In this document: piece by piece, positions 45,448-63,552 of the stretch
How positions within the stretch are numbered: the first letter of the stretch is position 1
Layout of the letters: the number at the start of each line of letters is the position of its first letter
DNA from: Candidatus Latescibacterota bacterium
GTDB lineage: Bacteria > Latescibacterota > UBA2968 > UBA8231
Length of the DNA stretch: 64,000 nucleotides
Assembly: GCA_965243025.1 (NCBI GenBank)
Contig: CBDETY010000003.1
Location: forward strand, 64,001 to 128,000
Reading direction: 5' to 3'
The notes under the pieces: model-generated
What the model was told of the DNA's origin: nothing
Seen by the model: only the letters and a program-made list of their open reading frames with translations
Databases searched by the model: none
Position numbers and translations under genes: made by a program

Positions 45448-46332
45448 TTACCCCGATTTCACGGACAGTTTTCCGTTTGGATTTATACCCCTTGATAAAT
45501 GATACCTCTCGTAGTTGATGGGAGATCGTTGTCCCAGGGCCGAGTGCCGCCGATGGGGGTTGTACCAGCCTTCCAGGTATTCGAAAACCGTACGCTGGGC
45601 TTGCGACTGGGTAGCAAACCGATGACGATCCAGCAGCTCCCTTTCCAAGGTGGCGAAAAAGCTTTCGCACAGAGCATTGTCGAAGCAGTCACCGACCGAT
45701 CCCATCGACGGACGTACCCCGGCCTGGCGACAGCGCTTCCCGAAGGCCAGGGCCGTATACTGACTGCCGTGGTCGGAGTGGTGAATCACTTTCTTGGGAC
45801 GGCGCCGGTGCAGGGCCATGTCAAGGGCGTCCAGCACCAACTGCGTACGCATATGGTTCGCCATGGCCCAGCCCACCACTCGGCGGCTCCAGGCGTCCAT
45901 GACCACGCTCAGATACAAAAACCCCGACCTCGTGGGAATGTAGGTGAGATCGGCAACCCACAGGCGATTCGGGCCGGAGACCGAAAACACCCGCTTGACC
46001 AGGTCGGAGGCGACCCGGCCCTGCCGGCCGCGACGGGTGGTGGAGAGGCGGCGGCGGGCGCATACCCCGCGCACCCCGAGCTCAAGCATCAATCGGGCGA
46101 TGCGCTTGCGACCGATGGCTTGGCCCTCCTCGGCCAGTTCGGCCCGGATCCTCGGCGCTCCATAAGTGCCCCGGGAGTGTTGGTGGATCTGCTCGACACG
46201 TGCCTTGAGCACGGCATCGGCCCGGGCGCGACCCGAAGGCGGGCGTTTCAACCAGGCGTAGTAGCCGCTGGGGGAGACCTTCAGCACGCGGCACATCGTC
46301 AGCACCGGAAAGTCGGCCTGGTGCGCTCTCAT
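45448..46332 (-). CDS. IS3 transposase OrfB (DDE integrase core)
   Basis: WVADLTYI, HHSDHGSQY, DNALCESFFATLERE and YNPHRRHSALG motifs. Confidence 0.95.
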   Translation of the reverse strand: MRAHQADFPVLTMCRVLKVSPSGYYAWLKRPPSGRARADAVLKARVEQIHQHSRGTYGAPRIRAELAEEGQAIGRKRIARLMLELGVRGVCARRRLSTTRRGRQGRVASDLVKRVFSVSGPNRLWVADLTYIPTRSGFLYLSVVMDAWSRRVVGWAMANHMRTQLVLDALDMALHRRRPKKVIHHSDHGSQYTALAFGKRCRQAGVRPSMGSVGDCFDNALCESFFATLERELLDRHRFATQSQAQRTVFEYLEGWYNPHRRHSALGQRSPINYERYHLSRGINPNGKLSVKSG

Positions 46333-46643
46333 GAACTCGTAGACGGGCCGGACTCCGAGTCGGCCTCGCGAGCGAACCAGGCCGTGGCTTTTGCCAGGAT
46401 CTCCCGTTCGATACGCAGTTGCTTGTTCTCACGGCGAAGGCGCCGCAATTCCTCCTGCTCCGGACGGGAGGGGCCGTCGCGGCGCACCCCCTCATCGCGT
46501 TCGGCCTGGATCACCCAGTTGCGGATCGTCTGCCCGGACGGCTCGAATTCCTTGGCCAGCGACTCCGGACTACGACCCGCCCGTACCAGTTCCACCATCT
46601 GTTGCCGGAATTCGGGCGGATAAGGGGAATGGGATTTCGGCAT
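46329..46643 (-). CDS. IS3 transposase OrfA (HTH)
   Basis: YPPEFRQQMVELV..LAKEF..TIRNW..EELRRLRREN..EREILAKA. ATGA overlap with orfB. Confidence 0.95.
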   Translation of the reverse strand: MPKSHSPYPPEFRQQMVELVRAGRSPESLAKEFEPSGQTIRNWVIQAERDEGVRRDGPSRPEQEELRRLRRENKQLRIEREILAKATAWFAREADSESGPSTSS

Positions 46644-48277: not shown

Positions 48278-49537
48278 TTACTCGAAGGGGAGCAGGTCGT
48301 CGTTGGCGTCGAACTGCATCTCCCGCGGCGGCTCGACGACGCTGAGTTCGTCGCGGCGCGCCACCTCCTTCTCGCAGGCCTCCGAAACGAGGATCTCCTC
48401 GACGTCGAGGGTGTTGCGGATGCGCATCACCCTGGCGTCGGGCGGCTCCACCAGCCCGCAGGTCGACAGCGCCGCTTCGAGCACCTTGCGGTCGCTGTCG
48501 AAGGAGATCGGCACCGCCCCGGCCGACGGGTGGTTGCCGGTCATGGTGTTGATGGCGGTCGCCTCGAGGTCGATCTGGTCGAGGATGCGCGAGTGGATGT
48601 AGTCGGCCATGCCGATGCCGGAGGCGTTGCCGTGGGTCTCCTCGGTAAGGCTGCGCACAGCGATGCGGGTGACCTTGGGGTACTCCTTCTCGGCGGCCTT
48701 GTGGTCGTAGTACTTGCGGCCGATGACGTTGGTGTCCATGCCGGAGCCGCTGATGTTCTTGCCCATCTCCTCGACGACGAGCACGTCGATCTGCTCGAAC
48801 GGCAGCGAGGGCATCCACTTCTTGGCCAGCAGCAGCAGCTCCTTCTCCCCCTCGACGAAGTTCTCCGGCTCCACGGCGCGCACCAGGGCGGTCCTGTCGT
48901 ACTGGTTCTCGACGATGCCGAGGCCGAACAGCACCCCGCACTTGTCGATCACCGTCTGGCCGACCGAGCGCACGATGCGGTCGAAGCTGTAGTGGACGAT
49001 GGCCTGGTGGTAGAGGGCGGCCCCTTTGTGCTTGCCCAGCCCGATCAGCATCATCTTGTGCAGGCCGCTCTCGATCTCCCCGACGAACCCGGTGTGCGGC
49101 TTGACGCGCCCGGCGACGACCACGTGGTCGGCCTCGTACGCGTACTTGTCGAAGAAGACGGGCACCCCGTCCCCGGTCTCGCCGACCTGCACCACCTCCA
49201 TCGACGACCGGATCGGCGCCCCGATGTACTCCTCGGTGACCCCGTAGCTCTCGATGATTTCCCGCTGCCCCTCGGCCCTGCCGCCGCCATGGCTGCCCAT
49301 CGCCGGGACTGCGAACGGCTCGGCACCCAGGGCCTGCAGCTCCTCGATCATCGATCTGGTGATCAGGGCGATGTTGGCGATGCCGCGGCTGCCGACGCTG
49401 ATGGCGACGCTGTCTCCCTTGCCGACCTTGCCGGAAAGGTTCAGCCCGGCGATCTCCTCGCGCACGGCGCCGGGAATGTCCTCGAGCGTAGGTCCGTCGA
49501 AACGCTGTTTTACCCGCATCATCCTGGGAAGTTGCAT
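48278..49537 (-). CDS. Lactate racemase N-terminal domain (LarA/DUF2088-like) protein
   Basis: VGSRGIANI, PAMGSHGG, RVKPHT, ESGLHKMMLIGLGK and GKNISGSGMDTNVIGR. Confidence 0.8.
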   Translation of the reverse strand: MQLPRMMRVKQRFDGPTLEDIPGAVREEIAGLNLSGKVGKGDSVAISVGSRGIANIALITRSMIEELQALGAEPFAVPAMGSHGGGRAEGQREIIESYGVTEEYIGAPIRSSMEVVQVGETGDGVPVFFDKYAYEADHVVVAGRVKPHTGFVGEIESGLHKMMLIGLGKHKGAALYHQAIVHYSFDRIVRSVGQTVIDKCGVLFGLGIVENQYDRTALVRAVEPENFVEGEKELLLLAKKWMPSLPFEQIDVLVVEEMGKNISGSGMDTNVIGRKYYDHKAAEKEYPKVTRIAVRSLTEETHGNASGIGMADYIHSRILDQIDLEATAINTMTGNHPSAGAVPISFDSDRKVLEAALSTCGLVEPPDARVMRIRNTLDVEEILVSEACEKEVARRDELSVVEPPREMQFDANDDLLPFE

Positions 49538-49634: not shown

Positions 49635-50792
49635 CTAAATCGCCTGCCTGAAGATCCCCTCGACGTCCCGGCGCGCGGTCTTGCGGGGGTTGACCTGGAT
49701 GTTTGCGCTCTGCATGGCGGCTTCTGCGAGGTCCTCGATGCCGCTCTCCTCGACCCCGAGCGTTCCCAGCTTCTCCGGAATTCCCAGGTCCTCGTTGAGC
49801 TGGCGCACCAGCTTCACCGCCTGTCGGGCCGCCTCATGGTCGCCGAGCCCATCGGTATCTCCCCCGAGCGCCCCGGCGACGTCGGCGAACCTGCCGGTCC
49901 GCGAGGGGAGGTTGAACTCCATCACGTACGGCAGCAGCACGGCGTTGGCGAGCCCGTGGTGGACGCCGAACTGGGCCCCGACCGGGTGCGACATGGCGTG
50001 CACGTTGCCGAGCCGGGTCTGCGAAAAGGCGATTCCCGCCATGGCGCTGGCCAGCAGCATGTTCTGGGTCGCTTCGGTCTCGTAGTCGTTGGCGCAGGCG
50101 AGCCGCAGGTTCTCCCCGATCAGGCGCATCGCCTCGAGGGCCATGCCGTCGCTCGCCGGGGAGGCCATCAGGTTGGTGTACGACTCGATGGCGTGGGTCA
50201 GGGCGTCCATCCCGGTGGGACCGCCTACCGCCGCGGGCAGGGCGGTGCACAGGGCGGCGTCGAGGACGCCGGCGCGCGGGGCGATCCGCCAGCTGACGAC
50301 GGGGTCCTTGTTGCGGGATGCCGGGTTGGTCAGCACCGCGAACGGGGTGACTTCGCTGCCGGTGCCGTAAGTGGTGGGCACGCAGACCAGGGGGGGGATG
50401 TCCCTGGTGATCTTCCCAGGGGCCATCAGGTACTCCTCGATGCGGCCCCCGTGGGAGGCGAGGACGCCGATCATCTTGGCGACGTCCATCGGGCTTCCGC
50501 CCCCCACGCCGAGCAGGGCGCCGCACTCCTGTTCGCTGAAGATGCGGGCCCCTTCCTCGACGCAGCTCGCCGGGGGGTTGGGGAGCACCCCGGAGAACAG
50601 GGTGCAGTCGACCTCCGCCTCATCGAGGACCGCGGCGACCTTGTCTATCACCCCGGCCTCGCGCAGCCCCTCGTCGGTGACGAGGAGGATCCGGGTGCCG
50701 GAGGGCAGCAGTTCGGGAAGCCGGGAAAGGGCGCCGGGACCGTGCAGCAGCCGCGTCGGGCTGCGGAACTCGAGGATTTCCTGATAGGCCAT
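49635..50792 (-). CDS. Iron-containing alcohol dehydrogenase
   Basis: GGGSPMD, PTTYGTGSEVT, DALTHAIE and HAMSH..HHGLAN motifs. Confidence 0.93.
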   Translation of the reverse strand: MAYQEILEFRSPTRLLHGPGALSRLPELLPSGTRILLVTDEGLREAGVIDKVAAVLDEAEVDCTLFSGVLPNPPASCVEEGARIFSEQECGALLGVGGGSPMDVAKMIGVLASHGGRIEEYLMAPGKITRDIPPLVCVPTTYGTGSEVTPFAVLTNPASRNKDPVVSWRIAPRAGVLDAALCTALPAAVGGPTGMDALTHAIESYTNLMASPASDGMALEAMRLIGENLRLACANDYETEATQNMLLASAMAGIAFSQTRLGNVHAMSHPVGAQFGVHHGLANAVLLPYVMEFNLPSRTGRFADVAGALGGDTDGLGDHEAARQAVKLVRQLNEDLGIPEKLGTLGVEESGIEDLAEAAMQSANIQVNPRKTARRDVEGIFRQAI

Positions 50793-50845
50793 AAGTCCGT
50801 CTGTCTGATAGGGTTAGAACAGTGGTGGGCCCAATGCGGCTGGCC

Positions 50846-51850
50846 CTATTCCATCTCAAGGGAGGCCTTGATCCGCCCCCAGGAGACCGATTCGACCGCG
50901 GAGCCTTCCGGCTCGGTGTTGGCGGGCAGCAGGATGCCGTCGAGGAAAAAATCCGCTTGAACAAATATTATGTCGAAAATTGTGTCTAATTCCCTACCCT
51001 CGCCGGGATCAGTGGGCTCCATGGCTTCGGGGATCCACCAGGTCGGCGCCCTTTCGTTTTCGTCCCAGTCATTCACCATGATCGCAAAGCCGATCACTTG
51101 TCCCGGTGCCAGATCGCTGAATTCCGTCTCTTCTATCTCATCCCACGCTCCCCCCGAATCGTGCGGAGTGACATACAGCTCGATCACGCTGATGGTCGGC
51201 GCTTCCCCGAATGCGCCCCCGCCCGCATCTCCATACGGGGGAAACATTTTCCAGGAGAATCCCCGAGCCCCGTCAGGGGTATCGATCAGCGGCCCGGTGA
51301 CGGTGCGGGCAATCGCCTCATATCTCTGGGTTCGGCCGTATGCCTGCATTTGCTCCTCCTGGGTCGAAAAAAACGAAAATCCTTCCCCCCCACTGTGGTC
51401 TCCGTCGAATGCCAGAGTGATGCTGTCATGCATTTCGATGGAGCTTCGGCCCCCATCAGGAGCATCGTAGTCGTGATCGTTCCGATACAGATCATCGCTG
51501 GCTGCGAAGGCGACGTAGAGACGGTCCGGGTCGTCGTGCCAGGCCAGCCAGATCCGGAAGTCGAGGTTGGAGGGATCCGGAAGCATGTAGTTCGTGGGTG
51601 TCTTAAAATCCAGCAGGGTCATGGCCGGCTCGCCGATCAGCTCGAACCATTCGTCTAACATTCCGTCGTCGAGCTGGATCTGTTCCAGCATCTCGTCGGT
51701 CAGCTCGGCGATCGGGAAGACTCGACCGCCGCTGTGGGCGCCTGCCTGAGCAGGAAAGCAGGCGGACAGGGCCGACCCGACGAGCAGGCCGAGGGCCATG
51801 CGCCGGTGATTCCTGAGACATCCCGCACCATCTGGTTTCCTTCGGCTCAT
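50846..51850 (-). CDS. Secreted CBM9/DOMON-like protein with SWGRIK C-terminal tail, paralog 1
   Basis: Signal peptide ending AGA-H. DG..DEW, FRIWLAWH..RLYVAF..DD, DGDHSGG, IGFAI.V.D and AVESVSWGRIKASLE. Start is uncertain (51850 or 51799). Confidence 0.65.
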   Translation of the reverse strand: MSRRKPDGAGCLRNHRRMALGLLVGSALSACFPAQAGAHSGGRVFPIAELTDEMLEQIQLDDGMLDEWFELIGEPAMTLLDFKTPTNYMLPDPSNLDFRIWLAWHDDPDRLYVAFAASDDLYRNDHDYDAPDGGRSSIEMHDSITLAFDGDHSGGEGFSFFSTQEEQMQAYGRTQRYEAIARTVTGPLIDTPDGARGFSWKMFPPYGDAGGGAFGEAPTISVIELYVTPHDSGGAWDEIEETEFSDLAPGQVIGFAIMVNDWDENERAPTWWIPEAMEPTDPGEGRELDTIFDIIFVQADFFLDGILLPANTEPEGSAVESVSWGRIKASLEME

Positions 51851-51866
51851 GCCCGAGAGGACTGTC

Positions 51867-52751
51867 TTACTCCCGGCTGGAGACGAAACAGAGGCTCTCG
51901 CCGTCAGGCGACCAGGCCGGCTTCCAGTCTCCGTCATGCCCCGACGTCAACCGGGCGATACCGGTTCCATCCGCGGCCATGCGATATATGGAGGTCACCC
52001 CGTCCCGGTTGGAAACGAAGGCGATCTCTTTGCCGTCGCTGGACCACGTCGGCTGCCGGTCCAGGGCAGGGTGATCGGTGAGGTTGACGACCTGGCCGCT
52101 GGCCACCTCGAGGATGCAGATCTCGAAATTGCCGAACCGGTTGCTCTCGAAGACAATCAGGCTGCCGTCCGGGGACCAGGACGAGTGAGCGTCGAACCCC
52201 TCATTCAAAGTCAGGTTCCGCAGGTTCCGGCCGTGGTGGTCGGCGACATACAGCTCGAGATTGCCGTCGCGGTGGGTGGTGAAAGCGAGGTGTTGTCCAT
52301 CAGGCGAGAAGGCCGGCTGGATGGCGTCCGCCAGGATCGGTTCCAAAGCGGAGTCTCCGGCACGGAGCTTCATGACGTAGATGTCGTAGGACTCCGGCTC
52401 CTCTGTTTTTCCGGCGAAGGCGATCCGGGTGCCGTCGGGAAACCAGGAAACCCCTCCCACGCTGGTTATCCGCGGCGGTACCGGCATTCTCAGGAGTACC
52501 TCCCCGGCCCGGGAGGCGAGGTGGAACTCGTTCCCGTTTTCGGTGTGCGCGACGTACAAGAGCCGGCCGTCCGGGCCCCAACTCGGGGTGGACCGGCCCT
52601 CCGTCGGAGACAGGCGCTCGATGGAGGTTCCGTCCCGACCCATGCGAAAAACGCTCTCGACCTGAGTATGTGCGGCTTCTGGATTGGACCACTGCCAGAG
52701 GAGCGAAAAAAAGGACAGGCCAATCGTCAGTTTGCAAGGCATTTCAGTCAT
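51867..52751 (-). CDS. TolB-like PD40 beta-propeller protein
   Basis: Repeated P.WSPDG..I.F.S.R.G..(E/D)IY units and an N-terminal signal. Confidence 0.88.
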   Translation of the reverse strand: MTEMPCKLTIGLSFFSLLWQWSNPEAAHTQVESVFRMGRDGTSIERLSPTEGRSTPSWGPDGRLLYVAHTENGNEFHLASRAGEVLLRMPVPPRITSVGGVSWFPDGTRIAFAGKTEEPESYDIYVMKLRAGDSALEPILADAIQPAFSPDGQHLAFTTHRDGNLELYVADHHGRNLRNLTLNEGFDAHSSWSPDGSLIVFESNRFGNFEICILEVASGQVVNLTDHPALDRQPTWSSDGKEIAFVSNRDGVTSIYRMAADGTGIARLTSGHDGDWKPAWSPDGESLCFVSSRE

Positions 52752-52839
52752 AGGTCAGTCCCCTGAAGTGTGATTACGGAAGGGGGGGCGGTCGAGTTTG
52801 GGTAACCCGTCGAAGGCTCGATGGGGGGCATGACTTTGG

Positions 52840-53805
52840 TTACTCCATCTCCAGGGAGGCCTTGATCCGCCCCCAGGAAACCGACTCGACTGCGCTGTCT
52901 TCTCCCGGTTCGGCCGCGCCGGCCGGCAGCAGCAGCCCATCGAGGAAGTGCTCCGCCCGGTAACGGTACAGGATGTCTATTTCCGGGTCCTCACTCTGGA
53001 CTGCTTCAGGCCCCAAGAACCAACTGCCTTTGTCTTCGCTTTCCCCCACGAGGATCGCAAAGCCTATGACCTTTCCTGCCGTCAGATCGCTGACCACGAC
53101 GTCTTCAGGCCGACTGTCGCGTCCCTGCCAACTATCGTATGGAGTGAAGTACAGCTCGATTACCCTGATGGTCGGGTTTTCCCCGGCGACGCCACCGCCT
53201 GCGTCTGCGTAGGGAGGAAAGAACATCCAGGAATCCTCCGTGGTAACTACTGTGTACCCGCCACTCAAGCCGGACGTATGATAGCCATACAACGCAGTGC
53301 GGCCACTGGCAGTACGGGCAATTGCCCCGTATTGTTGCGATTCCCCCCAAAAATCCCACGTTTCGAAGGATTCCAAACGATTCCCACCGCCGCTGTGATC
53401 TCCGTCGATAGCCAGGATAAGATCATGATTATTATCATCCAGAATGTGCACGTCATCGCTGGCCGAGAAGGCCACATAGAGCCGATCCGGCTCATCGTGC
53501 CAGGCCAGCCAAATGCGGAAGTCCAGGTCAGATGGATCAGGTACCTCACCGAAGGCTCTGAAATCGACCAGGGACATGGTGGGTTCGCCGATCAGATCGA
53601 ACCACTCCTCCACCGAGCCGTCGTGAAGCTGGATCCCGGCCAGCATCTCGTCGGTCAACCCGGCGAACGGGAATAGTCGATTGCCTGCGTGGGCTTCTGC
53701 CCGGGCAGACAGGCCTGCCTGGGCAAACAGGCTCGCGGACACCGCCAGCAGCAGGAGCACGCTCAGAGCAGGGGGCACTTGCTTTTTCATGCGGATGCAG
53801 GTCAT
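52840..53805 (-). CDS. Secreted CBM9/DOMON-like SWGRIK protein, paralog 2
   Basis: Start re-called at MTCIRMKKQ. Leader nearly identical to paralogs 3 and 4, divergent core, same C-tail. Confidence 0.65.
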   Translation of the reverse strand: MTCIRMKKQVPPALSVLLLLAVSASLFAQAGLSARAEAHAGNRLFPFAGLTDEMLAGIQLHDGSVEEWFDLIGEPTMSLVDFRAFGEVPDPSDLDFRIWLAWHDEPDRLYVAFSASDDVHILDDNNHDLILAIDGDHSGGGNRLESFETWDFWGESQQYGAIARTASGRTALYGYHTSGLSGGYTVVTTEDSWMFFPPYADAGGGVAGENPTIRVIELYFTPYDSWQGRDSRPEDVVVSDLTAGKVIGFAILVGESEDKGSWFLGPEAVQSEDPEIDILYRYRAEHFLDGLLLPAGAAEPGEDSAVESVSWGRIKASLEME

Positions 53806-53857
53806 CTGTCTTTCTCCCTGTTCGCAGGTCACCATTGATGAGGAGATGGCGGTACGG

Positions 53858-54856
53858 CTACTCCATCTCCAGGGAGGCCTTGATCCGCCCCCAGGAGACC
53901 GACTCGGCCGCGGTGTCTTCCGGTCCGGCGCCGGCCGGCAGCAGGATGCCGTCGAGGAAAAAATCCGCTCGGGCATTACGTATGTCGACTTCCGTACGGA
54001 AACGAGGATCACTGGGCTGCATGGCTTCGGGGGTCCAGGACCACCCGATTGCCTCTTCTTCCTCGTCCCAGTCCTCCACCATGATCGCAAAGCCGATCAC
54101 CTGTCCCGCAGCCAGATCCGTGAACTCCGTCTCTTCGATCCCATCAAATGTCCCCCACCGGTCGTAGGGGGTGACATACAGCTCGATCACGCTGATGACC
54201 GGCGCTTCCCCGAAGACGCCCCCGCCCGCATCCCCGTACGGGGGAAACAGCTTCCAGGAGAACGCCCCCGTCCGACGTCCAACGTAGTTGTCCATGGTCG
54301 GTCCGCTGGCGGTGCGGGCGATGGCATCATATAGCTGCGCTTGCCCACTGGCTTCCATCAACTCCTCCTCTGTCGAAGTTGAGGTAGTTCCGGCGCCGCC
54401 ACCGTGATCCCCGTCGATGGTCAGAGTGATGCTGTCATGGTTCGGGATGTTCCTTCGTATGCCATACCCATCGTGGTCGTGATCGTTCCGGTACACATCA
54501 TCGCTGGCCACGAAGGCTACGTAGAAACGGTCCGGGTCGTCGTGCCAGGCCAGCCAGATGCGGAAGTCGAGGTCGGAGGGATCGGGTGGCAGGTAGTTGC
54601 TATGGGTCTGGAAATCCAGCAGGGTCATGGCCGGCTCGCCGATCAGCTCGATCCACTCGTCTATGCGGCCGTCGTGGAGCTGGATCTGTTCCAGCATTTC
54701 GTCGGTAAGCTCTGGAATGGGGTACACCCGCCCGCCGCTGTGGGCGTCTGCCCGGGCACACAGGCCTGCCTGGGCAAACAGGCTCGCCGTCACCGCCAGC
54801 AGCAGGAGTACGCTCAGCGCAGGGGGCACTTGCTTTTTCATGCGGATGCAGGTCAT
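53858..54856 (-). CDS. Secreted CBM9/DOMON-like SWGRIK protein, paralog 3
   Basis: 999-bp ORF from MTCIRMKKQ, near-identical to paralog 4. Confidence 0.65.
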   Translation of the reverse strand: MTCIRMKKQVPPALSVLLLLAVTASLFAQAGLCARADAHSGGRVYPIPELTDEMLEQIQLHDGRIDEWIELIGEPAMTLLDFQTHSNYLPPDPSDLDFRIWLAWHDDPDRFYVAFVASDDVYRNDHDHDGYGIRRNIPNHDSITLTIDGDHGGGAGTTSTSTEEELMEASGQAQLYDAIARTASGPTMDNYVGRRTGAFSWKLFPPYGDAGGGVFGEAPVISVIELYVTPYDRWGTFDGIEETEFTDLAAGQVIGFAIMVEDWDEEEEAIGWSWTPEAMQPSDPRFRTEVDIRNARADFFLDGILLPAGAGPEDTAAESVSWGRIKASLEME

Positions 54857-54911
54857 CTGTCTTTTCTCCCTGTTCGCAGGTCGCGGTTTGGATGAGGAGA
54901 TGGCGGTACGG

Positions 54912-55910
54912 CTACTCCATCTCGAGGGAGGCCTTGATCCGGCCCCAGGAGACCGACTCGACCGCGGTGTCTTCCGGTCCGGCGCCGGCCGGCAGCAGGA
55001 TGCCGTCGAGGAAAAAATCCGCTCGGGCATTACGTATGTCGACTTCCGTACCGAAACGAGGATCACTGGGCTGCATGGCTTCGGGGGTCCAGGACCACCC
55101 GATTGCCTCTTCTTCCTCGTCCCAGTCCTCCACCATGATCGCAAAGCCGATCACCTGTCCCGCAGCCAGGTCGGTTAACTCCGTCTCTTCGATCTCATCC
55201 CACGTCCCCCACCGGTCGTAGGGGGTGACATACAGCTCGATCACGCTGATGACCGGCGCTTCCCCGAAGACGCCCCCGCCCGCATCCCCGTACGGGGGAA
55301 ACAGCTTCCAGGAGAACGCCCCCGTCCGACGTCCAACGTAGTTGTCCATGGTCGGTCCGCTGGCGGTGCGGGCGATGGCATCATATCGCTGCGCTTGCCC
55401 ACGGGCTTCCATCAACTCCTCCTCTGTCGAAGTTGAGGTAGTTCCGGCGCCGCCGCCGTGATCCCCGTCGATGGTCAGAGTGATGCTGTCATGGTTCGGG
55501 ATGTTCCTTCGTATGCCATACCCATCGTGGTCGTGATCGTTCCGGTACACATCATCGCTGGCCACGAAGGCTACGTAGAAACGGTCCGGGTCGTCGTGCC
55601 AGGCCAGCCAGATGCGGAAGTCGAGGTCGGAGGGATCGGGTGGCAGGTAGTTGCTATGGGTCTGGAAATCCAGCAGGGTCATGGCCGGCTCGCCGATCAG
55701 CTCGATCCACTCGTCTATGCGGCCGTCGTGGAGCTGGATCTGTTCCAGCATTTCGTCGGTAAGCTCTGGAATGGGGTACACCCGCCCGCCGCTGTGGGCG
55801 TCTGCCCGGGCACACAGGCCTGCCTGGGCAAACAGGCTCGCGGACACCGCCAGCAGCAGGAGTACGCTCAGCGCAGGGGACACCTGCTTTTTCATGCGGA
55901 TGCAGGTCAT
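54912..55910 (-). CDS. Secreted CBM9/DOMON-like SWGRIK protein, paralog 4
   Basis: 999-bp ORF with RBS aaggag. Offset from paralog 3 by 1054 bp. Confidence 0.65.
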   Translation of the reverse strand: MTCIRMKKQVSPALSVLLLLAVSASLFAQAGLCARADAHSGGRVYPIPELTDEMLEQIQLHDGRIDEWIELIGEPAMTLLDFQTHSNYLPPDPSDLDFRIWLAWHDDPDRFYVAFVASDDVYRNDHDHDGYGIRRNIPNHDSITLTIDGDHGGGAGTTSTSTEEELMEARGQAQRYDAIARTASGPTMDNYVGRRTGAFSWKLFPPYGDAGGGVFGEAPVISVIELYVTPYDRWGTWDEIEETELTDLAAGQVIGFAIMVEDWDEEEEAIGWSWTPEAMQPSDPRFGTEVDIRNARADFFLDGILLPAGAGPEDTAVESVSWGRIKASLEME

Positions 55911-55960
55911 CTGTCTTTTCTCCTTTTTGTTTCCCTCCAAACGAAATCGGCGTATGCGCG

Positions 55961-55999
55961 GTGCCCCAACGCCCCCAATGGTCAAGGGCGTTGGGGCAC
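55961..55999 (-). terminator. 14-bp perfect stem-loop downstream of the small peptide gene
   Basis: gtgccccaacgccc / gggcgttggggcac. A second small hairpin gcaggg..ccctgc lies at 56012-56030. No U-tract. Confidence 0.55.
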
Positions 56000-56034
56000 T
56001 CTTCAGCCGGGCGCAGGGTTCGGGGCCCTGCCGG

Positions 56035-56259
56035 TCAGTCGCTGCAGCTGCAGTCGCCGGTGTCGCAGTTCCAGCTGTAACTGTCGTGGTTCACGAGTGC
56101 GCACTCGTATGCGCACATGTTGGCGGTGCTCGTCGTCTGCTCGTGCGACGACTCATACCAGGACAGGGGCGGGGAGTGCGCGTCCGTCAAGGACGCACCG
56201 CCCAGCAGGAGCCCTGCCCCCAGCAGGACGGCGACGATGTACTTCGCAAGATGCGACAT
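56035..56259 (-). CDS. Small secreted Cys-rich peptide with CS-alpha-beta (defensin-like) spacing
   Basis: RBS aaggagg, signal peptide ending TDA-H, and a mature part with C-x3-C-x11-C-x4-C-x-C. Confidence 0.7.
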   Translation of the reverse strand: MSHLAKYIVAVLLGAGLLLGGASLTDAHSPPLSWYESSHEQTTSTANMCAYECALVNHDSYSWNCDTGDCSCSD

Positions 56260-56318
56260 GCTGCCTCCTTTGTGTTCGGGGTTAGCGCCTGTCGCTACCC
56301 CGTTTCATCCAGAAGACA

Positions 56319-56334
56319 TGCAAATGCCGTGCCG
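56319..56334 (-). promoter_or_regulatory. Sigma54 (-24/-12) promoter
   Basis: Minus strand reads CGGCACGGCATTTGCA (GG-N10-GC; consensus TGGCACG-N4-TTGCA), 60 bp upstream of the peptide ATG and next to a sigma54 activator gene. Confidence 0.8.
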
Positions 56335-56467
56335 GTACCGGGCCGGCGGCTCCATCGGTGCTGTCCGTGACGACGTAACCTGTTATTTTCATGGTGGTTA
56401 TTACACCACATTTTTTTATTTTCGGCACAATCAGCTCCCGCGGCGCCGCCATCGGCTTCTCGGTCTC

Positions 56468-56527
56468 GTCGTATTTAATACGATTCGGCCGTATTTAATA
56501 CGACTTGGCCGTATTTAATACGACTTC
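56468..56527. repeat. Three tandem 20-bp units each carrying the palindrome CGTATT-T-AATACG (candidate enhancer/UAS)
   Basis: cgtatttaatacga at 56470, 56490 and 56510. Confidence 0.9.
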
Positions 56528-56635
56528 CCCGATAGCCGCGGCCGACGGCTGGTTGCTCCTGCTTTCGTTCTTCCTTATTGGTACGGTTCTGTGGATAACA
56601 ACCCACCTTGCCCCACAAAGAAAACGGATTCGAAA

Positions 56636-59600
56636 ATGAACGAGGCACGCGAACCCCATTCCCCATCCACCCGGGTCGAGGGTGGGGGGGTGGCTTTCGA
56701 CCATATCCTCGGGCGCCAGTACACGGTCTTCGACGGGCTGGCCGGGATGCACGTGGAAGACATCTACCAAGACCGCCGGGGGCTCCTCTGGATCGCCACC
56801 GCCGACGGCGGGGTCAGCCGCTTCGACGGGGCCCGGTTCGAGACCTTCGGCCCCTCGAACGGGCTTCCCCATCTCAACGCGATGACCATTGCCGAAGACG
56901 AGGGCGGGCGCCTGTTGTTCGGCACTCTCGGGGGCGGGCTGGCCGCTTTCGACGGGCAGGGGTTTCAGGTGTACACCACCGCGGACGGACTGCCCTCCAA
57001 CGACATATTGAGCCTGCACCCCCGGGCGGACGGCTCGGTACAGGTGCTGACCGGGAACGGGATCGCCCGCTTTGTCGAGGGGCGGTGTCTGGAGCCGCTG
57101 ACGGACGTGGCCGGCCAATCCCTCGGAGCGGTGTACGACATGGCTACCGACGCGGCGGGTACGACGTGGCTGGCGTCGCGGGAGCGGGGGATCATCGACC
57201 TGGAAGGTCAGTCCATGAACGGGCATCCGGGCACCGGGGAAACAGCTATGCAATGGCCCTGGAAGTTCGCCCCGGACGCCTCCGGCGGTCTGTGGATCGC
57301 CTTCCGGTACGTGGGCAGCGAAGCCGTTGTCGGCCGTTACGACCCCGAGCGCCGGCAGCTCGACCTGATCGAGGTGGACCACGAGGTCGAGAGCGGCGAA
57401 GTGGTCCAGCACGGCACGCGGCATGTGCGCCAGGACGACAGGGGCTGGCTGTGGATGAGCCGCCGGGGGGTCCTGGTGTACGACGGGCAGGCCTGGCATT
57501 CGTTTTCCGCCCGCTTGCAGGGCACCCATTTCTCGGACACGCGGCTGACCTGCGAGGACCGCGAGGGCAACATCTGGATAGGACTGTGGGGCGGCGGGCT
57601 GCTCTTCTGCGATCCGGTCAGCGTGCAGTTGTACACGGAAGCCGACGGTTTGCCCGACAACGAGGTCCAGTGCCTGGACGAAGACGGGCGGGGTCGGCTG
57701 TGGATCGGGACCATGGGGGGCCTGGCCTGCCGGGAAGAGGACCGCATCCGTACGGTCAATGCCGGGCAAATGGTTTCGGCGCTGGCGGCAGACGGCCCCG
57801 GGCCGGTTTGGAGCGGAAGCCCGGAGGGCAAGGTATTCAAGTGGACGGGAAAAGAATCCCGAGCGATCGAGGTGGCCGAAACCGGCTCCGGGGAAGAGAT
57901 CACGGCCCTGTGCGCGGACGGCCGCGGGCATGTATGGGCCGGCACCTCCCGGGGGCGCCTGGGGCGGGTGGAAGCCGACCGGTTCAACCCGGTGGCTGAG
58001 GAGCTGCCCCATGAGTGCAGCGCCGTGCTGCCGGCCCGGGACGGTGTCTTATGGGTCGGCACCGGGGGGCCCGCCCCGGCGCTTTACCGGTACGAGGATG
58101 GCCGCTTCCAGCCGCCCTCCCTGGCCGGCCTGGAGGCCGTATCCGAAGTGACGGCCTTGTGCGAGCACCAGGGCCACCTCTGGGTGGGCACGGCCAACAG
58201 CGGCCTGTTCGCCCTGGATTTCTCCGCGCAGGAGATTCGCCGGTTTACCGTGGACCGGGGGGACTTGTCGGTAAACGGCATTCTCTGTCTGGTGGCCGAC
58301 CCGGAGCAGGACTGCCTGTGGGTCGGCACGAGCGGCGGCGGGGTGCTGAGGTACGACGGGCATGCGTTCCAGACCATCCGCCTGGGGAACGCCGGCCTGG
58401 AGAACGTGGTCGAGGCCATCCTGATCGACAGCGATGACAGCCTGTGGTTCGGGACCCGGGCGGGTCTCGTCGCGTACCACCCCGGCCAGGTGCCGCCTGC
58501 CCTGGCGATCGGGCGGGTCGAGGCCGGGCGTCTCTTCAAGGCCCCCCGGGCCGTGACCTGCAAGGAAAGCACCCGCGAGGTTCTGATCGAGTTCCAGGGC
58601 ATCAGTTTCAGAACCGGGGCGGAGCAACTGCGTTACAGCCACCGCCTGGCCGGTCATGCCCCGGCGGAAGCCTGGAGCGAATTCACCTCCGCCAATTCTG
58701 TTTCGTTTTCCGGTCTGCCGGCCGGCCGGTTCTGCTTCGAGGTGCGGACCATGGACCGGGACCGCTTGATTTCGGAAGCGGTCAGCCTGGAGGTGCAGGT
58801 GGTTGCGGAGAAGCAAAGCGCGCCCGGTTCGGCCCTGGAGCATATGCCGTGGACCTCTCGGGAGGACATGCTCAGAAACAGTCCGGTCATGTCCCGGGTC
58901 CTGAAACTGGCCGAACAGGTGGCCGGGACCGGGATGACGGTGCTGATTCTGGGGGAGACCGGGGTGGGCAAGGGGGTGCTCGCCGAACACATTCACGCCG
59001 CGAGCTCGCGCCGGGGGCATCCCTTTGTACCGGTCAACTGCGGTGGCCTGCCCCCGGGGTTGGTTGAAAGCGAACTGTTCGGGCACGAAAAGGGCGCCTT
59101 CACCAACGCGGTGGAACGGAAGAAAGGCCGGTTCGAACAGGCGCACGAGGGCACCCTGTTCCTCGATGAAATAGGCGACCTGCCCTTGGAGGCTCAAGGG
59201 GTCCTGCTTCACATCCTGGAGGATCGACACCTATTACGCGTCGGCGGGGAGACGCCCGTCCCGGTGGATTTCAGGGTGGTTGCGGCCACCAACCGGGATT
59301 TGAAAGAGGCCATCACCAAAGGGGATTTCCGGGAAGACCTGTTCCACCGCCTGAACGTGTTCCCGGTGAAAATCCCGCCTCTGCGGGATCGGGGGGAGGA
59401 AATACCGTTCCTCGCCGCCTACTTCGCGAGCCGGTTTGCCGGCGAGTTGGGGCGGCCGGTGCCGTCTCTGAGCTCCGAGGTGTTGAGGCACTTCCAGGAG
59501 TATCCCTGGCCGGGTAACGTGCGCGAGCTGGAGCACGTGATGCAGCGGGCGGTGCTCGTGTGCCGGGATCACGTCGTGCAGCTGGAGGATGGGCTTCCTG

Positions 59601-59851
59601 ATGAAGACCTGTACTGGGATGATGGGTCTGCTTCGTCGCCTGCGTCGGCTCCGCCGGTCGACCCAGGGGAAGGAACCGAAGCCGGCACGGTCTTCAAGTC
59701 CGAAGAGCAACAAATCCTGGAAGCCCTCCAGGCAACCGAAGGGGTCGTATATGGGCCGAAAGGCGCGGCTGTCTTGTTGGGCATGAATCCGGAGCGGTTG
59801 CGTTCCCGCCTGCGGGTGTACGGGTTGGAAAAACCAAAGAAACAGTCTTGA
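56636..59851 (+). CDS. Sigma54-dependent activator with N-terminal two-component-regulator propeller repeats and Y_Y_Y-like domain
   Basis: DGL...V..I..D..G.LWI.T..GG repeats, then [54 protein letters not shown] and a C-terminal HTH. Start could be 56591. Confidence 0.9.
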
Positions 59852-59869
59852 GCGGGGAGAAACCCGCTC
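59850..59869. terminator. Short hairpin between convergent genes
   Basis: gagcggg-gagaaa-cccgctc begins at the activator stop codon. Confidence 0.4.
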
Positions 59870-59951
59870 TCCCTCGGTGCCTCCCGGTTCGGTTCGGGTC
59901 TGCTGTGTATTGGGTAGACGTTCAGCCCACCTTCCTCTTGGCCGCCGTAAG

Positions 59952-60974
59952 TCACACGAACAAACGGGTGATCTCGTCGACCTCGTAGCGGGGCAGCTGC
60001 TCCAGCCTGCCGCGGCGCCGCAACCGCAGGCCGGCGGACCGGTCGACGGCGCGGGCGACGACCTCGGCGCCGATCCCCGCTTCGGCCAGCGCCGCAAGGA
60101 TCGGTTCCGCCGCCTCCTGCGGGCAGCCGATCAGCAGGGCCCCGGAGGAGATCGCCCCGAACGGGTCGAGGCCGTACTCGGCGCACAGGCGCCGCGATTC
60201 GTCGCGGCAGCGCAGGCGGTCGCCGAACACTTCGAGGCCGACCCCGGAGGCTGCGGCGAGCTCCCGCAGCCCGGTGGCGACCCCCCCTTCGGTCGGGTCG
60301 TGCATGGCGTGCACCTCGGCCGCTTCTGTGGCGACCGCGGCGTCCCGCACCACGCTGATTCCGGGGTCGCGCAGGTACCCGGCGCAGCGGTCGAGGAAGG
60401 CGGCCTCGAACCCCCGTTCCTCCAGCTCCCCGCGCTTCTCCCGCGCGATGATGGCGGTGGCCTCGACCGCCATCCCCTTGGTGAGCAGCACCGCGTCTCC
60501 GGGCACCAGGCCTGAGGAGCGCACCACCTTTCCGCAGTCGACGTCCCCGAGCATCTGGCCGACGACGATGGGCCGGTCGATGCCGTGAGTGATCTCGGTG
60601 TGGCCGCCGCAGACGGCGATCCCGAGCTGCCGGGCGGCCTCGTCGATCGAGCGGAACACCGATTCGATCAGGGCCTCGGTCGCCTGCTCTTCGGGGAGGA
60701 TGACGGAGGCGAGGAAGAAGCGGGGGGTAGCTCCCATGGCGGCGACGTCGTTGGCGTTGACGTGGACGGCGTACCAGCCGGCCTCGTCGGTGGCGAAGGT
60801 GATCGGGTCGGTCTTGGCGACCACGCAGCGGTCCCCGAAGCGGATGACGGCGGCGTCCTCGCCGATTCCGGGGGGAACCAGCAGGCGCTCGTTCTCTCCG
60901 GCGGCGTAGCGGGAGAGCATGCGCCCGAGCAGCTCGGGGGGGAGCTTGCCGGCGGGGTAGCGCTCGCCGTTCAC
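59952..60974 (-). CDS. AIR synthase-related (HypE/ThiL/PurM-like) protein
   Basis: GKLP.ELL, PGIGEDAAV, KTDPIT, VNANDVAAMGA, GGHTE and MHDPTEGG. GTG start overlaps the upstream stop (GTGA). Confidence 0.88.
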   Translation of the reverse strand: MNGERYPAGKLPPELLGRMLSRYAAGENERLLVPPGIGEDAAVIRFGDRCVVAKTDPITFATDEAGWYAVHVNANDVAAMGATPRFFLASVILPEEQATEALIESVFRSIDEAARQLGIAVCGGHTEITHGIDRPIVVGQMLGDVDCGKVVRSSGLVPGDAVLLTKGMAVEATAIIAREKRGELEERGFEAAFLDRCAGYLRDPGISVVRDAAVATEAAEVHAMHDPTEGGVATGLRELAAASGVGLEVFGDRLRCRDESRRLCAEYGLDPFGAISSGALLIGCPQEAAEPILAALAEAGIGAEVVARAVDRSAGLRLRRRGRLEQLPRYEVDEITRLFV

Positions 60975-62515
60975 CGGCGCTCCCCGGCGTAATGGGCGCA
61001 GATCGACCGCACGAGGGCGGGGATGCTGCTCTCGGGAGGCTGCAGGGCGGCCTCGAGCCCGAGGTCGCGGACCGCCTGCGCCGTGGTCGGGCCGATGCAG
61101 GCGAGGGCGGCTGCGGCCAGGTGGGCCATCCCCTTTTCCGGGCCGCAGACAGTGAGGAAGTTGCGCACCGACGAAGGGCTGGCGAAGACGATCATGTCGA
61201 GCCGGTTTTCGGTGAGGGCCGAGGGCAGCTCGACGGTTTCGGGGTCGGGGGGGCGGTTCTCGTAGGCGACGACGCGATGGACCTGCGCCCCCCGGCGCGC
61301 CAGCGCGGCGTCGAGACCGGTGCGGCCGATTGAGGATGCCGGTACCAGGAAGCTGGCCCCGGAAACCGCGATCTCCTCGAAGGCTGCGGCGAGCCCTTTC
61401 TGGGACTGCTCCCCCGGGACGAGGTCGGGCGCCAGTCCGCGGCGGCGCAGGTGCTGCGCCGTCGACATGCCGACCGCGGCGATGGAGCAGGGCCCGAGAG
61501 CGCGGGCGTCCTTTCCCAGGGCGGCGAGGCGGTCGAAGAAAAAGCTGACGCTGTTGGGGCTGGTGAACAGGATCCAGGCGAAATCCGGCAGGCGGCGGAG
61601 GGCGTTGTCGAGATCGCTCCAGTCCGGGGGCGGTCCGATCTCCAGCAGGGGCAGCGCCGAGACCTCGGCCCCTTCCGCCTCGAGCATCAGCTGCAGGCGG
61701 CCGGCCTGCTCGCGGCTGCGGGTGACGAGGATGCGGCGGCCGAACAGCGGCTTCCCCTCGAACCAGTTGAGCTGCTCCCGCAGGGAGACCACCTCCCCCA
61801 CGAGGACGAGGGTCGGCGACTCGAGGGACGCGTCTCTGGCCGCCTCGGCGACCCGTCCCAGAGTCGACACCACGGTGCGCTGGTGGGGCCAGGTCCCCCA
61901 CTCGATGGCCGCGGCCGGGGTTTCGGGAGTGCGCCCGTTCCGGGTCAGGGTGGCGGTGATCTCGCCGAGCTTGCGCGACCCCATGAAGACGACGAGGGTG
62001 CTGTCGAGCCGGGCAAGCATCTCCCAGTCGACCCCGGGGGCGCCGCGCGCGGGGTCCTCGTGCCCGGTGACGAGGACCGCGGCCGCCGAGACGTTGCGGT
62101 GGGTCAGGGGAATGCCGGCGTACGCCGGAACCCCGGAGGCCGCGGTCACTCCCGAGACGACCTCGAAAGGCACCCGGGCTTCGGCGAGGGCTACCGCCTC
62201 CTCACCGCCGCGGCCGAAGATGTAGGGATCTCCTCCTTTGAGGCGCACCACCCGGCGCCCCTCCCGCGCCAATTGAACGAGCAGCCCGTTGACCTCCTCC
62301 TGTTTCCGCGCGCCGCCGCCGCCGCGATGGCCGACGTACACCTTTTCGCAGTCCTCCCGGGCGAGCCTGAGAAGGCGCCGGTCGAGCAGGTCGTCGAACA
62401 GGATCACGTCCGCCTCGGAGACCAGGTGGGCCCCTTTCAGGGTCAGCAGGCCCGGGTCTCCAGGGCCGCCCCCGACGATGTAGACGGTTCCCGGCGCCGC
62501 CGGCGCGAAGTTCAT
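60971..62515 (-). CDS. cobA: Uroporphyrinogen-III C-methyltransferase / uroporphyrinogen-III synthase fusion (CobA-HemD)
   Basis: VGGGPGDPGLLT, RLKGGDPYIFGRGGEE, KPLFGRRILVTR, FTSPNSV, FASPSSV and CIGPTT. Confidence 0.93.
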   Translation of the reverse strand: MNFAPAAPGTVYIVGGGPGDPGLLTLKGAHLVSEADVILFDDLLDRRLLRLAREDCEKVYVGHRGGGGARKQEEVNGLLVQLAREGRRVVRLKGGDPYIFGRGGEEAVALAEARVPFEVVSGVTAASGVPAYAGIPLTHRNVSAAAVLVTGHEDPARGAPGVDWEMLARLDSTLVVFMGSRKLGEITATLTRNGRTPETPAAAIEWGTWPHQRTVVSTLGRVAEAARDASLESPTLVLVGEVVSLREQLNWFEGKPLFGRRILVTRSREQAGRLQLMLEAEGAEVSALPLLEIGPPPDWSDLDNALRRLPDFAWILFTSPNSVSFFFDRLAALGKDARALGPCSIAAVGMSTAQHLRRRGLAPDLVPGEQSQKGLAAAFEEIAVSGASFLVPASSIGRTGLDAALARRGAQVHRVVAYENRPPDPETVELPSALTENRLDMIVFASPSSVRNFLTVCGPEKGMAHLAAAALACIGPTTAQAVRDLGLEAALQPPESSIPALVRSICAHYAGERR

Positions 62516-63456
62516 GGTGAGGCCGTGTCCTTGCGGCCCGCCCGCTCCAGCAGCCGGTCCGCTCCGGCTTCGAGCAGCTCGGCGGCCTGGTCGCGGCCGA
62601 GGGCGTCCGCGGCGTCGGGAAGGCCCTCGCCGGTGCGCCGCAGCAGCTCGCTGCCGTCCGCGGAGGCGACCAGGCCGTCGAGGAACAGCTCGCCGCTGAT
62701 CTCGCGCCCCCAGGCGGCGACCGGGGCGCGGCAGCCGGCGCCGAGGGTGTGGAGGAGGCTGCGCTCGGCCGCGGCGCCGGCCCGGGTCGGTCCGTGGTTG
62801 AGCTCGGCAACCAGTCCGCGGCGGGGGTCTCCCCGGCGCATCTGCAGGCCGAGAACTCCCTGTCCGGGGGCGGGCAGCATCTCGTCGGTGTCGAGGTAGG
62901 AGCTGATGCGGTCGAGCAGGCCGAGCCGCTGCAGGCCGGCGGCTGCCAGCACGACGCCGTCGAGGCCGTCCGCGCCGACTTTGCCTATCCGGGTGTCGAC
63001 GTTGCCGCGGATCTCCGCGAACCGCAGGTCGGGCCGGAGCGCCAGCAGTTGGGCGCGGCGGCGGGGGCTGCCGGTACCGAGAAGGGCTCCCCCGGGCAGC
63101 TCCTCGAGGCTGCGGTCCCCGGCGGTGACCAGCACGTCCCGCACGTCGGCCCGGGCAGGGGCGGCGGCCAGCTCGAGATCGGCGGGGACCGCTGTCGGCA
63201 GGTCCTTGAGGCTGTGGACGGCGAGGTCGACCCGACCGTCCCGCAGGGCGGTTTCGAGTTCCGCGGTGAACACCCCCTGCCCGCCGATCTCCGAGAGCGG
63301 ACCGCGGGAACGGTCCCCCTCGGTGCGGACGATCTCCAGCTGCAGATCCAGGGTGTCGCCGACCTCTTCCCGGAGCAGCGCGCAGACGCGCTCCGCCTGG
63401 GCGAGGGCCAGCCTGCTGCCGCGGGTGCCAACGGTGAGGGAATGCCGGGGGGCCAC
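62512..63456 (-). CDS. hemC: Hydroxymethylbilane synthase (porphobilinogen deaminase)
   Basis: GTRGSRLALAQ, AVHSLKDLP, RGNVDTR, LPAPGQG and LGAGCRAPV. GTG start re-called at 63456. Confidence 0.95.
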   Translation of the reverse strand: MAPRHSLTVGTRGSRLALAQAERVCALLREEVGDTLDLQLEIVRTEGDRSRGPLSEIGGQGVFTAELETALRDGRVDLAVHSLKDLPTAVPADLELAAAPARADVRDVLVTAGDRSLEELPGGALLGTGSPRRRAQLLALRPDLRFAEIRGNVDTRIGKVGADGLDGVVLAAAGLQRLGLLDRISSYLDTDEMLPAPGQGVLGLQMRRGDPRRGLVAELNHGPTRAGAAAERSLLHTLGAGCRAPVAAWGREISGELFLDGLVASADGSELLRRTGEGLPDAADALGRDQAAELLEAGADRLLERAGRKDTASP

Positions 63457-63552
63457 GAGTGACGGGAAATTCTGCCGAAGGGAAGGAGGGAAGTGAGTCG
63501 CCCGAATATAGAAGCGGCCCCGGACCATCAACAGCTTTCGGCCCCTGGCCAA

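Follow-up and report, generated by a model that had tools for sequence, protein, structure and literature searches.

The 64-kb window analyzed here (64,000 nucleotides of contig CBDETY010000003.1, from a Candidatus Latescibacterota bacterium) carries on its minus strand a gene for a small, cysteine-containing secreted peptide, which is the first gene of an operon. The genes behind it are predicted to encode four secreted paralogues with the fold of CBM9 carbohydrate-binding modules (CBM9-fold proteins) and a PD40 (TolB-like) β-propeller protein, and a gene for a sigma-54 enhancer-binding protein diverges from the peptide gene on the plus strand. The coordinates of these genes and of the sequence elements around them are given in Table 1.

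Table 1. Features of the peptide operon and its control region; a slash in a protein sequence marks the predicted signal-peptide cleavage site
Feature	Position	Strand	Basis or remark
Peptide gene, 74 aa	56035..56259	minus (56259→56035)	ATG start; G+C content at third codon positions (GC3); homologues; family conservation
Predicted signal peptide, aa 1–27	56179–56259	minus	
Predicted mature peptide, 47 aa	56038–56178	minus	
Stop codon of the peptide gene	56035–56037	minus	
Ribosome-binding site AAAGGAGG	56264..56271	minus	4 nt before the peptide ATG; sequence read
Sigma-54-type promoter cGGCACGgcatTTGCa	56319..56334	minus	−24 GG / −12 GC; 61 nt upstream of the peptide ATG
A+T-rich stretch	56380..56425	unstranded	Between the candidate enhancer sites and the promoter; sequence read
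Near-palindrome CGTATTTAATACG, three exact copies	56470..56522	unstranded	20-bp spacing; 154–194 bp upstream of the −12 element
Divergent sigma-54 enhancer-binding protein	56591..59851	plus	Pfam, NCBIfam; true start may be the ATG at 56636
G+C-rich hairpin, 18-bp stem, 3-nt loop	55961..55999	minus	36 nt after the peptide stop codon
CBM9-fold secreted protein, copy 1, 327 aa	54912..55895	minus	Predicted signal peptide, then ..ADA/HSGG; C-terminal tail SVSWGRIKASLEME
CBM9-fold secreted protein, copy 2	53858..54841	minus	hmmsearch with the A3 profile, E 1.1e-158
CBM9-fold secreted protein, copy 3	52840..53790	minus	..AEA/HAGN
PD40 (TolB-like) β-propeller protein	51867..52751	minus	Pfam PD40, E 6.9e-43; predicted signal peptide ..PEAA/HTQ
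CBM9-fold secreted protein, copy 4	50846..51937	minus	A3 profile, E 1.5e-148; ..AGA/HSGG

The peptide open reading frame (ORF) is a genuine gene. Its GC3 is 0.88, compared with 0.52 at the first two codon positions; on the plus strand it is overlapped by two long ORFs whose GC3 values, 0.52 and 0.51, are of the non-coding type. The frame therefore looks coding, because the GC3 signature is specific to it. The N terminus is basic and hydrophobic, reads as a signal sequence ending in ..GGASLTDA, and is followed by a 47-residue part that begins with histidine; the cleavage site was placed by eye, using small residues at −1 and −3 and the register of the alignment. In the mature part the cysteines are spaced by 3, 11, 4, and 1 residues (C-x3-C-x11-C-x4-C-x-C), lysine and arginine are absent, and the net charge is −7. 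A preliminary description of this DNA had proposed a signal peptide and an acidic mature part of about 47 residues with this cysteine pattern and without Lys or Arg, and for the window copy each of these features was confirmed on the minus strand.

Relatives of the peptide were recovered by a word-indexed protein search (seven, with E values down to 4.5e-41), an exhaustive search of representative sequences (12 at E ≤ 0.001, two of which were judged spurious), and a profile search (34 at E ≤ 1). P0013 and P0014, repeat proteins of 692 and 1602 aa that match over short stretches only, were rejected as relatives. The family is small and unnamed, has so far been found only in metagenome-derived sequences, and contains no member with a Pfam domain. 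The peptide itself gave only sub-threshold matches to Pfam and NCBIfam models, all in the signal-peptide region; tblastn against plasmid and phage collections gave no match, a scan of genome contigs with the peptide alignment gave eight pattern matches of which none was confirmed, and the best score in an ESM Atlas search was 0.80, below the level of a usable lead. The family alignment (A4) holds the window peptide and 32 of the 34 profile matches; P0006 and P0007 were left out because their C-terminal halves diverge into unrelated tails (alignment A1). Conservation was counted over 28 intact members, after P0148, P0152, P0153, P0155, and P0156 had been dropped for an early stop or an unrelated run-on.

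The motif CxxxC…CxC is present in all 28 intact members, and so are two histidines, His39 and His58 (His12 and His31 of the mature peptide). A histidine at the predicted mature N terminus (His1) is found in 26 of the 28. Tyr51 is nearly as constant (27/28), and His41 is shared by 17. Several members have N-terminal tails that are dense in histidine, with, for example, seven His per 43–45 residues. The cysteines outside the motif behave differently: the extra Cys sits at varying places, positions beyond the four core cysteines are not conserved, and the column of the window's fifth Cys holds a cysteine in 10 of the 28 members. Five cysteines are present in 18 members, seven in seven, six in two, and four in one, so that the number is odd in 25 of 28. 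Net charge ranges from −7 to +3, and acidity is not a family trait. As read from the alignment, the invariants of the family are thus a putative two-disulfide core and three histidines, and both the position of the odd Cys and the acidity vary. Conservation of the cysteine pattern among homologues, on which the preliminary description had made its proposal depend, was found. Its remark that the equivalent of the first defensin Cys is missing and an odd Cys left over holds for the window peptide, which has five cysteines and no C1, and the odd count extends to most of the family, but the column of the fifth Cys does not; as defining traits, the position of the odd Cys and the lack of Lys and Arg are limited to the window copy and its close relatives.

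The structure of the peptide was predicted with AlphaFold2 from an alignment of 13 sequences, with a mean predicted local distance difference test (pLDDT) score of 66.5 and a predicted template modeling (pTM) score of 0.42. In the mature part the model has a strand at residues 40–42, a helix at 46–55, and strands at 60–64 and 69–73, with pLDDT of 80–85 in 10-residue blocks. The helix carries the CxxxC motif and the last strand carries CxC, an arrangement like that of cysteine-stabilized αβ (CS-αβ) peptides; at moderate confidence, the strand-helix-strand-strand model is compatible with the helix plus β-hairpin that had been expected. When the model was compared with the PDB using Foldseek, no match reached E ≤ 0.001; the first-ranked entry was the CS-αβ scorpion toxin Tc32 (E 0.43, TM score to the target 0.58, 31% identity over 39 columns), which is not significant, and ranks 2–7 were PAN/apple N-domains of hepatocyte growth factor. 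A search of PDB sequences with the family profile gave five matches, all defensin-like (brazzein variants and an insect defensin mutant) and all non-significant at E values of 2–3.3. None of 33 members matched the Pfam defensin, toxin, or thionin models at E ≤ 10. The identification as a CS-αβ peptide therefore stands in part: the CxxxC/CxC core is universal in intact members, the model has the β-α-β-β order, the top PDB fold match is a CS-αβ toxin, and the profile matches are all defensin-like, but none of these matches is significant and Pfam is silent. It is reasonable to suppose that the peptide works like a CS-αβ core, and from model and alignment we infer that CxxxC and CxC would pair through two disulfides, which would make this a minimal cis-defensin core. 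Membership in a known defensin family is not shown, as the searches detected no sequence relationship.

CS-αβ peptides had been described as rare in bacteria, a statement superseded by a survey that catalogs 74 bacterial cis-defensins in five classes, mostly from Proteobacteria (Cardoso et al. 2024, PMC11561630). Among these, xanthusin-1 of Myxococcus xanthus has a solved structure and is not antimicrobial, and actifensin is one bacterial defensin that has antimicrobial activity (PMC11561630). The present peptides resemble the members of classes I–V: a signal peptide precedes a small mature peptide with CxxxC...CxC, and a helix and β-strands are predicted. They also share a GXC motif before CxC, which reads G-D-C in the window copy and is present in 16 of the 28 intact members, without being a family invariant. 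Another point of likeness is the N-terminal tail of classes II–IV, which is about 20 residues long, lacks structure, and is often acidic, and non-cationic members exist among the known peptides (PMC11561630). The differences lie in the core, the histidines, and the host. The window peptide, with five cysteines and no C1, does not fit the six-cysteine pattern CX(2,18)CX3CX(2,12)CX(4,17)CXC of the bacterial cis-defensins; six cysteines occur in two of the 28 members, and one sequence, P0010, has its six cysteines in the right order but with a C4–C5 gap of just 3 residues. The family appears to keep only the two disulfides of the cysteine-stabilized alpha-helix (CSH), has three conserved histidines including one at the mature N terminus, and comes from Latescibacterota, unlike the Proteobacteria, Acidobacteria, and Actinobacteria named in that survey (PMC11561630). 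The myxobacterial two-disulfide "cysteine-stabilised alpha-helix" peptides (Zhu 2007, via PMC11561630), when compared by description, are alike in that no more than two disulfides secure their CSH core, and they too are bacterial and secreted; relative to these, the present family adds extra cysteines that would be mostly unpaired, the histidine triad, and a predicted sigma-54 operon. A full-text literature search found no paper that pairs "defensin-like" with "Latescibacter," although the sequence tables of PMC11561630 may still list a relative.

The proteins encoded downstream share one feature with the peptide. In the peptide, the four CBM9-fold copies, and the PD40 protein alike, the predicted cleavage site is A/H, whereas four other secreted proteins of the window have A/Q or A/D, so that all secreted products of the operon start with a predicted N-terminal His. 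The signal peptides of the proteins encoded at 23473–25392, 27802–30474, and 39211–39903 end in ..ASA/QDD, ..VHA/QFL, and ..AGA/QVF, which is reminiscent of the N-terminal Gln rule known for secreted proteins of Bacteroidota. The CBM9-fold paralogues have no Pfam match at E ≤ 1 and no NCBIfam match, and their fold was assigned from the AlphaFold2 model of copy 1 (pTM 0.70), which Foldseek matched to 1i82 (E 2.8e-7), 7nwn (4.0e-7), 7nwo (6.1e-7), and 4jpq (7.8e-5 and 1.1e-4) and, more weakly, to the haem-binding γ subunit of ethylbenzene dehydrogenase. In Atlas clusters of look-alikes, PF06452 is assigned to 13–94% of members, and the commonest sources are Latescibacterota, Gemmatimonadota, and Poribacteria. 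The family is large (at least 562 matches), with several copies per genome. In an alignment of 28 homologues (A3), the His that follows the signal peptide is invariant (28/28), as are the C-terminal tail of the SVSWGRIKASLEME type and several His/Asp motifs (WLAWHD, NxHDY, DGDHSGG). The predicted fold is that of CBM9 carbohydrate-binding modules and DOMON-like β-sandwiches, a likeness that does not extend to the peptide; unlike CBM9 modules, the paralogues stand alone as secreted proteins instead of being appended to an enzyme, and they have the invariant N-terminal His and C-terminal tail. Judged from these sequence features, they may be a family of unrecognized N-terminal-His metalloproteins. 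Copy 1 was considered as a lipoprotein and rejected because the Cys in its signal peptide is not conserved in A3, and copy 4 probably starts at an internal Met, either that at 51850 or that at 51799. Two 300-nt stretches of copies 1 and 2 (53837–54136 and 54891–55190) are 98% identical with a repeat period of 1054 bp, which points to a recent tandem duplication or gene conversion.

We tentatively favor, as a possibility that falls short of a firm assignment, the reading that the peptide is a defensin-scaffold extracytoplasmic metal-binding peptide, which would capture or hand over a transition metal. Metal binding is favored because three conserved histidines (His1, His12, and His31) sit on the predicted two-disulfide core, usually together with one spare Cys. 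Signaling, host mimicry, and metal binding had been suggested side by side at the outset; metal binding gains from the histidines, which the preliminary description did not mention. In the proposed arrangement, the CxxxC of the helix would be bonded to the CxC of the last strand, so that the cysteine-stabilized helix packs on the β-hairpin. His1 would be exposed by cleavage of the signal peptide, His12 would immediately precede the first strand, and His31 would follow directly on the helix; in most members, one unpaired Cys would be available beside the three histidines. Together these side chains could coordinate a metal outside the cytoplasm in the manner of a histidine brace or tri-histidine brace, and the peptide would in this way capture or pass on Cu, Ni, Zn, or Co. 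Its likeliest clients or partners would be the four CBM9-fold proteins and the PD40 protein, because all of them start with a predicted N-terminal His.

There are precedents for both halves of this proposal. The +1 residue is His in only 2.6% of secreted proteins, and a conserved N-terminal His marks extracytoplasmic metalloproteins, whose metal is chelated by the N-terminal amino group and the imidazole, with other histidines completing the site (PMC12537917). Lytic polysaccharide monooxygenases (LPMOs) and CopC are examples of the histidine brace, and DUF6702 binds Ni, Co, and Cu at a His1/His28/His32 site (PMC12537917). The peptide resembles these proteins, and the "anglerases" described with them, in having a signal peptide followed by a conserved His and further conserved His, and in the role proposed for it, the capture or passing on of a metal outside the cytoplasm; they differ in being β-sandwiches of at least 150 residues, as opposed to a disulfide-knotted, putatively metal-binding peptide of 47 aa (PMC12537917). 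On the side of the scaffold, the plant histidine-rich defensins are a defensin fold specialized for metal binding (PMC7557933), and reports link AtPDF1.1 to iron chelation (PMC5569111) and AhPDF1 to zinc tolerance (PMC4475384). The likeness here is that of a His-enriched defensin scaffold that binds metal instead of, or besides, killing microbes; the plant proteins are eukaryotic and longer, have an eight-Cys framework, and do not have His at the mature N terminus, and common descent is not evidenced. A more specific version of the metal-binding reading, which we consider improbable, is that the peptide, by virtue of its N-terminal tri-histidine site and spare thiol, is a dedicated extracellular Cu/Ni carrier or redox partner of co-transcribed histidine-brace CBM9-fold proteins that act on polysaccharides, in a module switched on by the cytoplasmic β-propeller sigma-54 activator.

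The control region of the operon has the standard anatomy of an enhancer-dependent promoter, with promoter, upstream activating sequence (UAS), and neighboring activator gene, and sigma-54 control is predicted on this basis. The promoter core GGCACGgcatTTGC (56320–56333, on the strand of the peptide gene) is the sole match to GGCACG-N4-TTGC in the window; since 22 of 100 shuffled versions of the window contained at least one such match, the weight of the promoter rests on its position and strand. The CGTATTTAATACG near-palindrome gave six strand-hits, a number reached in none of 100 shuffles, and its array is a candidate enhancer (UAS) for the adjacent activator. The A+T-rich stretch that separates array and promoter is a possible DNA-bending site. 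The activator ORF of 1086 codons encodes Reg_prop repeats (E 3.6e-38), a Y_Y_Y domain, a Sigma54_activat AAA+ domain (E 3e-65), a lid, and a weak HTH_8, and inspection by eye revealed neither a signal peptide nor a membrane segment in it. The Reg_prop/Y_Y_Y sensor, which would be cytoplasmic, is joined to the AAA+ domain in place of a receiver domain. The loop that contacts sigma-54 reads GAFTNA in this protein, and its consensus is usually GAFTGA. In the proposed mechanism, the divergent β-propeller activator would switch on the sigma-54 promoter through the three upstream palindromes.

That the peptide gene comes first in the operon and is followed by a strong hairpin, as originally noted, was borne out by an 18-bp stem. 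The hairpin folds with −52.9 kcal/mol and a z score of about −2.9 (−2.8 in a second run), only one of 200 shuffles folded as well, and three other intergenic regions of the operon showed no comparable fold (z −0.64, +0.46, and −0.38). It is not followed by a U-tract and is therefore not a canonical intrinsic terminator. A search of positions 50000–60000 against Rfam gave no match at E ≤ 1, so that no known riboswitch or leader lies there. A gene-specific hairpin of this kind plausibly fits attenuation or 3′-end protection; by limiting read-through or protecting the 3′ end, it would keep the peptide message above those of the downstream genes and make it the more abundant.

Comparison with a related genome shows how the module is placed. 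Window positions 49635–63552 are syntenic with positions 2026–11986 of locus L001 of a Candidatus Latescibacterota metagenome-assembled genome (MAG): the genes for hemC, cobA-hemD, an AIR-synthase-related protein, an Fe-type alcohol dehydrogenase, and a LarA-like protein are kept in order with 84–95% protein identity. Between the AIR-synthase-related and Fe-type alcohol dehydrogenase genes, L001 has a single CBM9-fold gene, whereas the window has about 9 kb with the genes for the activator, peptide, PD40 protein, and three additional paralogues; the module is thus a lineage-specific insertion or expansion. A scan of genome contigs with the CBM9-fold alignment gave 110 pattern matches at four loci, all in one Latescibacterota MAG. 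In that genome, CBM9-fold genes are split into ORF pieces at L001:4669–6840, L003:5974–6705, and L004:5983–8144, either through frameshifts of assembly or sequencing or because they are pseudogenes. At L004, a gene for an Nramp-family metal-ion transporter (4539–5777, minus strand) diverges from the tandem CBM9-fold pair at 5983–8144, as a single instance. Beyond this genome, at least nine of the 34 peptide matches are on contigs equal in size to one with a CBM9-fold match (among the best 120 of 562 such matches), including contigs of 3,862 and 6,768 bp; contigs of equal size were taken to be the same contig, and linkage of the two families is inferred from this.

Several observations weigh against a metal-binding, defensin-scaffold peptide that serves the CBM9-fold proteins. 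No homologue of the peptide, and no other small Cys-rich ORF with a signal peptide, is present at any of the four CBM9-fold loci of the related MAG, which indicates that CBM9-fold proteins do not need the peptide, and their family is far bigger than that of the peptide (at least 562 versus 34 matches). Among the operon genes, Pfam searches identified none for a metal transporter, metal sensor, or chaperone. Reg_prop/Y_Y_Y sensors are known from carbohydrate-sensing regulators, and the sensor type of the activator, by this analogy, suggests a sugar cue rather than a metal cue. With respect to the scaffold, no fold or profile match to a defensin is significant and Pfam recognizes none of the members, and the N-terminal tail that would contribute to the metal site is poorly modeled (block pLDDT 50–55 at residues 21–40). 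Two intact members begin with N-S-G-H in place of His1. The C-terminal CxC is absent from seven of 35 family sequences, namely those set aside above; their contigs measure 522–3,862 bp in six cases and 48,408 bp in the seventh, and all seven are read as truncated or frameshifted predictions.

The same observations bear on other explanations. One, which we consider unlikely, would make the peptide a small partner protein that contacts the CBM9-fold proteins as a subunit, inhibitor, or lid, with its histidines serving the interface and not a metal. It is typical of CS-αβ peptides to act by binding proteins, for example to block channels or inhibit enzymes, which favors such a role, as do the position of the peptide gene at the head of a CBM9-fold operon, the contigs that the two families probably share (at least nine of 34 peptide matches), and the A/H start common to both. 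Against it, the peptide is missing from all four CBM9-fold loci of the related genome, the syntenic L001 included, the two families are very unequal in size (34 versus at least 562 matches), and the hairpin implies non-stoichiometric expression.

Two further explanations are improbable. As a defensin-type bacteriocin directed against competitors, the peptide would have the CSH core and, in the window copy, the GXC motif in its favor, and one bacterial defensin, actifensin, is antimicrobial (PMC11561630), but it lacks Lys and Arg and carries a charge of −7, intact members reach no more than +3, and a cationic surface is not found; the conserved residues are His, Tyr, and Cys and do not form a cationic or amphipathic surface, and Pfam detected no immunity, ABC-export, or processing gene in the operon. 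No better a chance is given to a metallothionein-like thiolate peptide, whose four to seven cysteines would stay reduced in an anoxic periplasm and bind a metal cluster together with His, the defensin-like spacing being coincidental. Cys and His make up 8 of the 47 residues of the window peptide and up to 12 of 43 in relatives, and the odd number of cysteines in 25 of 28 members is awkward for an all-disulfide design. Against this, the invariant spacing is exactly that of a helix CxxxC and a strand CxC, AlphaFold2 builds a compact β-α-β-β domain without metal, and it is precisely the cysteines beyond the four core positions that are not conserved.

A gene that lies beside its own regulator is a layout familiar from peptide quorum-sensing loci, and a secreted autoinducer that acts back on the sigma-54 activator of its own operon would be consistent with a first operon gene next to a probable regulator and probably overexpressed relative to the genes downstream. 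It is nevertheless very improbable, since the activator, without a visible signal peptide or membrane segment, could not meet an exported, folded 47-aa peptide, and the locus has no histidine kinase, importer, processing, or export genes. A precursor of a ribosomally synthesized and post-translationally modified peptide was also considered and rejected, as no radical-SAM, cyclodehydratase, lanthipeptide, peptidase-ABC, or similar gene turned up nearby when 32 window proteins and the products of the operon were searched with Pfam. Finally, a non-functional chance ORF, although high-GC DNA is rich in long spurious ORFs and two of them overlap the gene on the plus strand, is effectively refuted already by a GC3 signature confined to the peptide frame, a ribosome-binding site and promoter, and 34 homologues with residue-specific conservation.

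Outside the operon, several neighboring genes were recorded. Just downstream of it, the LarA-like (Lar_N) protein is encoded at 48278–49537 (minus strand) between genes for Fe- and Zn-type alcohol dehydrogenases; enzymes of the LarA type work with a nickel cofactor. An IS3-type transposase encoded by two ORFs (HTH_Tnp_1 in the first, HTH_21 and the rve integrase core in the second) lies at 45448–46643 (minus strand), about 0.5 kb beyond the alcohol dehydrogenase genes. Several very long ORFs of 890–1265 aa at 27802–36037 and 5031–11587 (plus strand) have coding-type GC3 and no Pfam domain at E ≤ 1e-5.

Bacterial cis-defensin-like peptides were already known; the present family differs from them in its phylum, its core of two putative disulfides only, its histidine triad with an N-terminal His, and its context of a predicted σ54 operon. 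Bacterial defensin-like peptides have been cataloged only recently, and the function of nearly all of them is not known. The present family extends them to an uncultured phylum, with the scaffold stripped to a two-disulfide core, and marks three histidines, and not cationic residues, as the selected surface. Metal binding by a peptide of 47 residues that can be synthesized is a concrete and cheap hypothesis. The larger CBM9-fold family, with more than 500 matches in Latescibacterota, Gemmatimonadota, and Poribacteria-type genomes, may be the weightier lead, as extracellular metalloproteins of polysaccharide degraders. If the peptide did prove to be a Cu/Ni carrier, this would be the first metal-handling role of the defensin fold in bacteria and would add a hitherto undescribed type of histidine-brace system, present in Latescibacterota, Gemmatimonadota, and Poribacteria, in which the N-terminal-His CBM9-fold proteins, as a previously unrecognized family, would themselves be histidine-brace metalloproteins.

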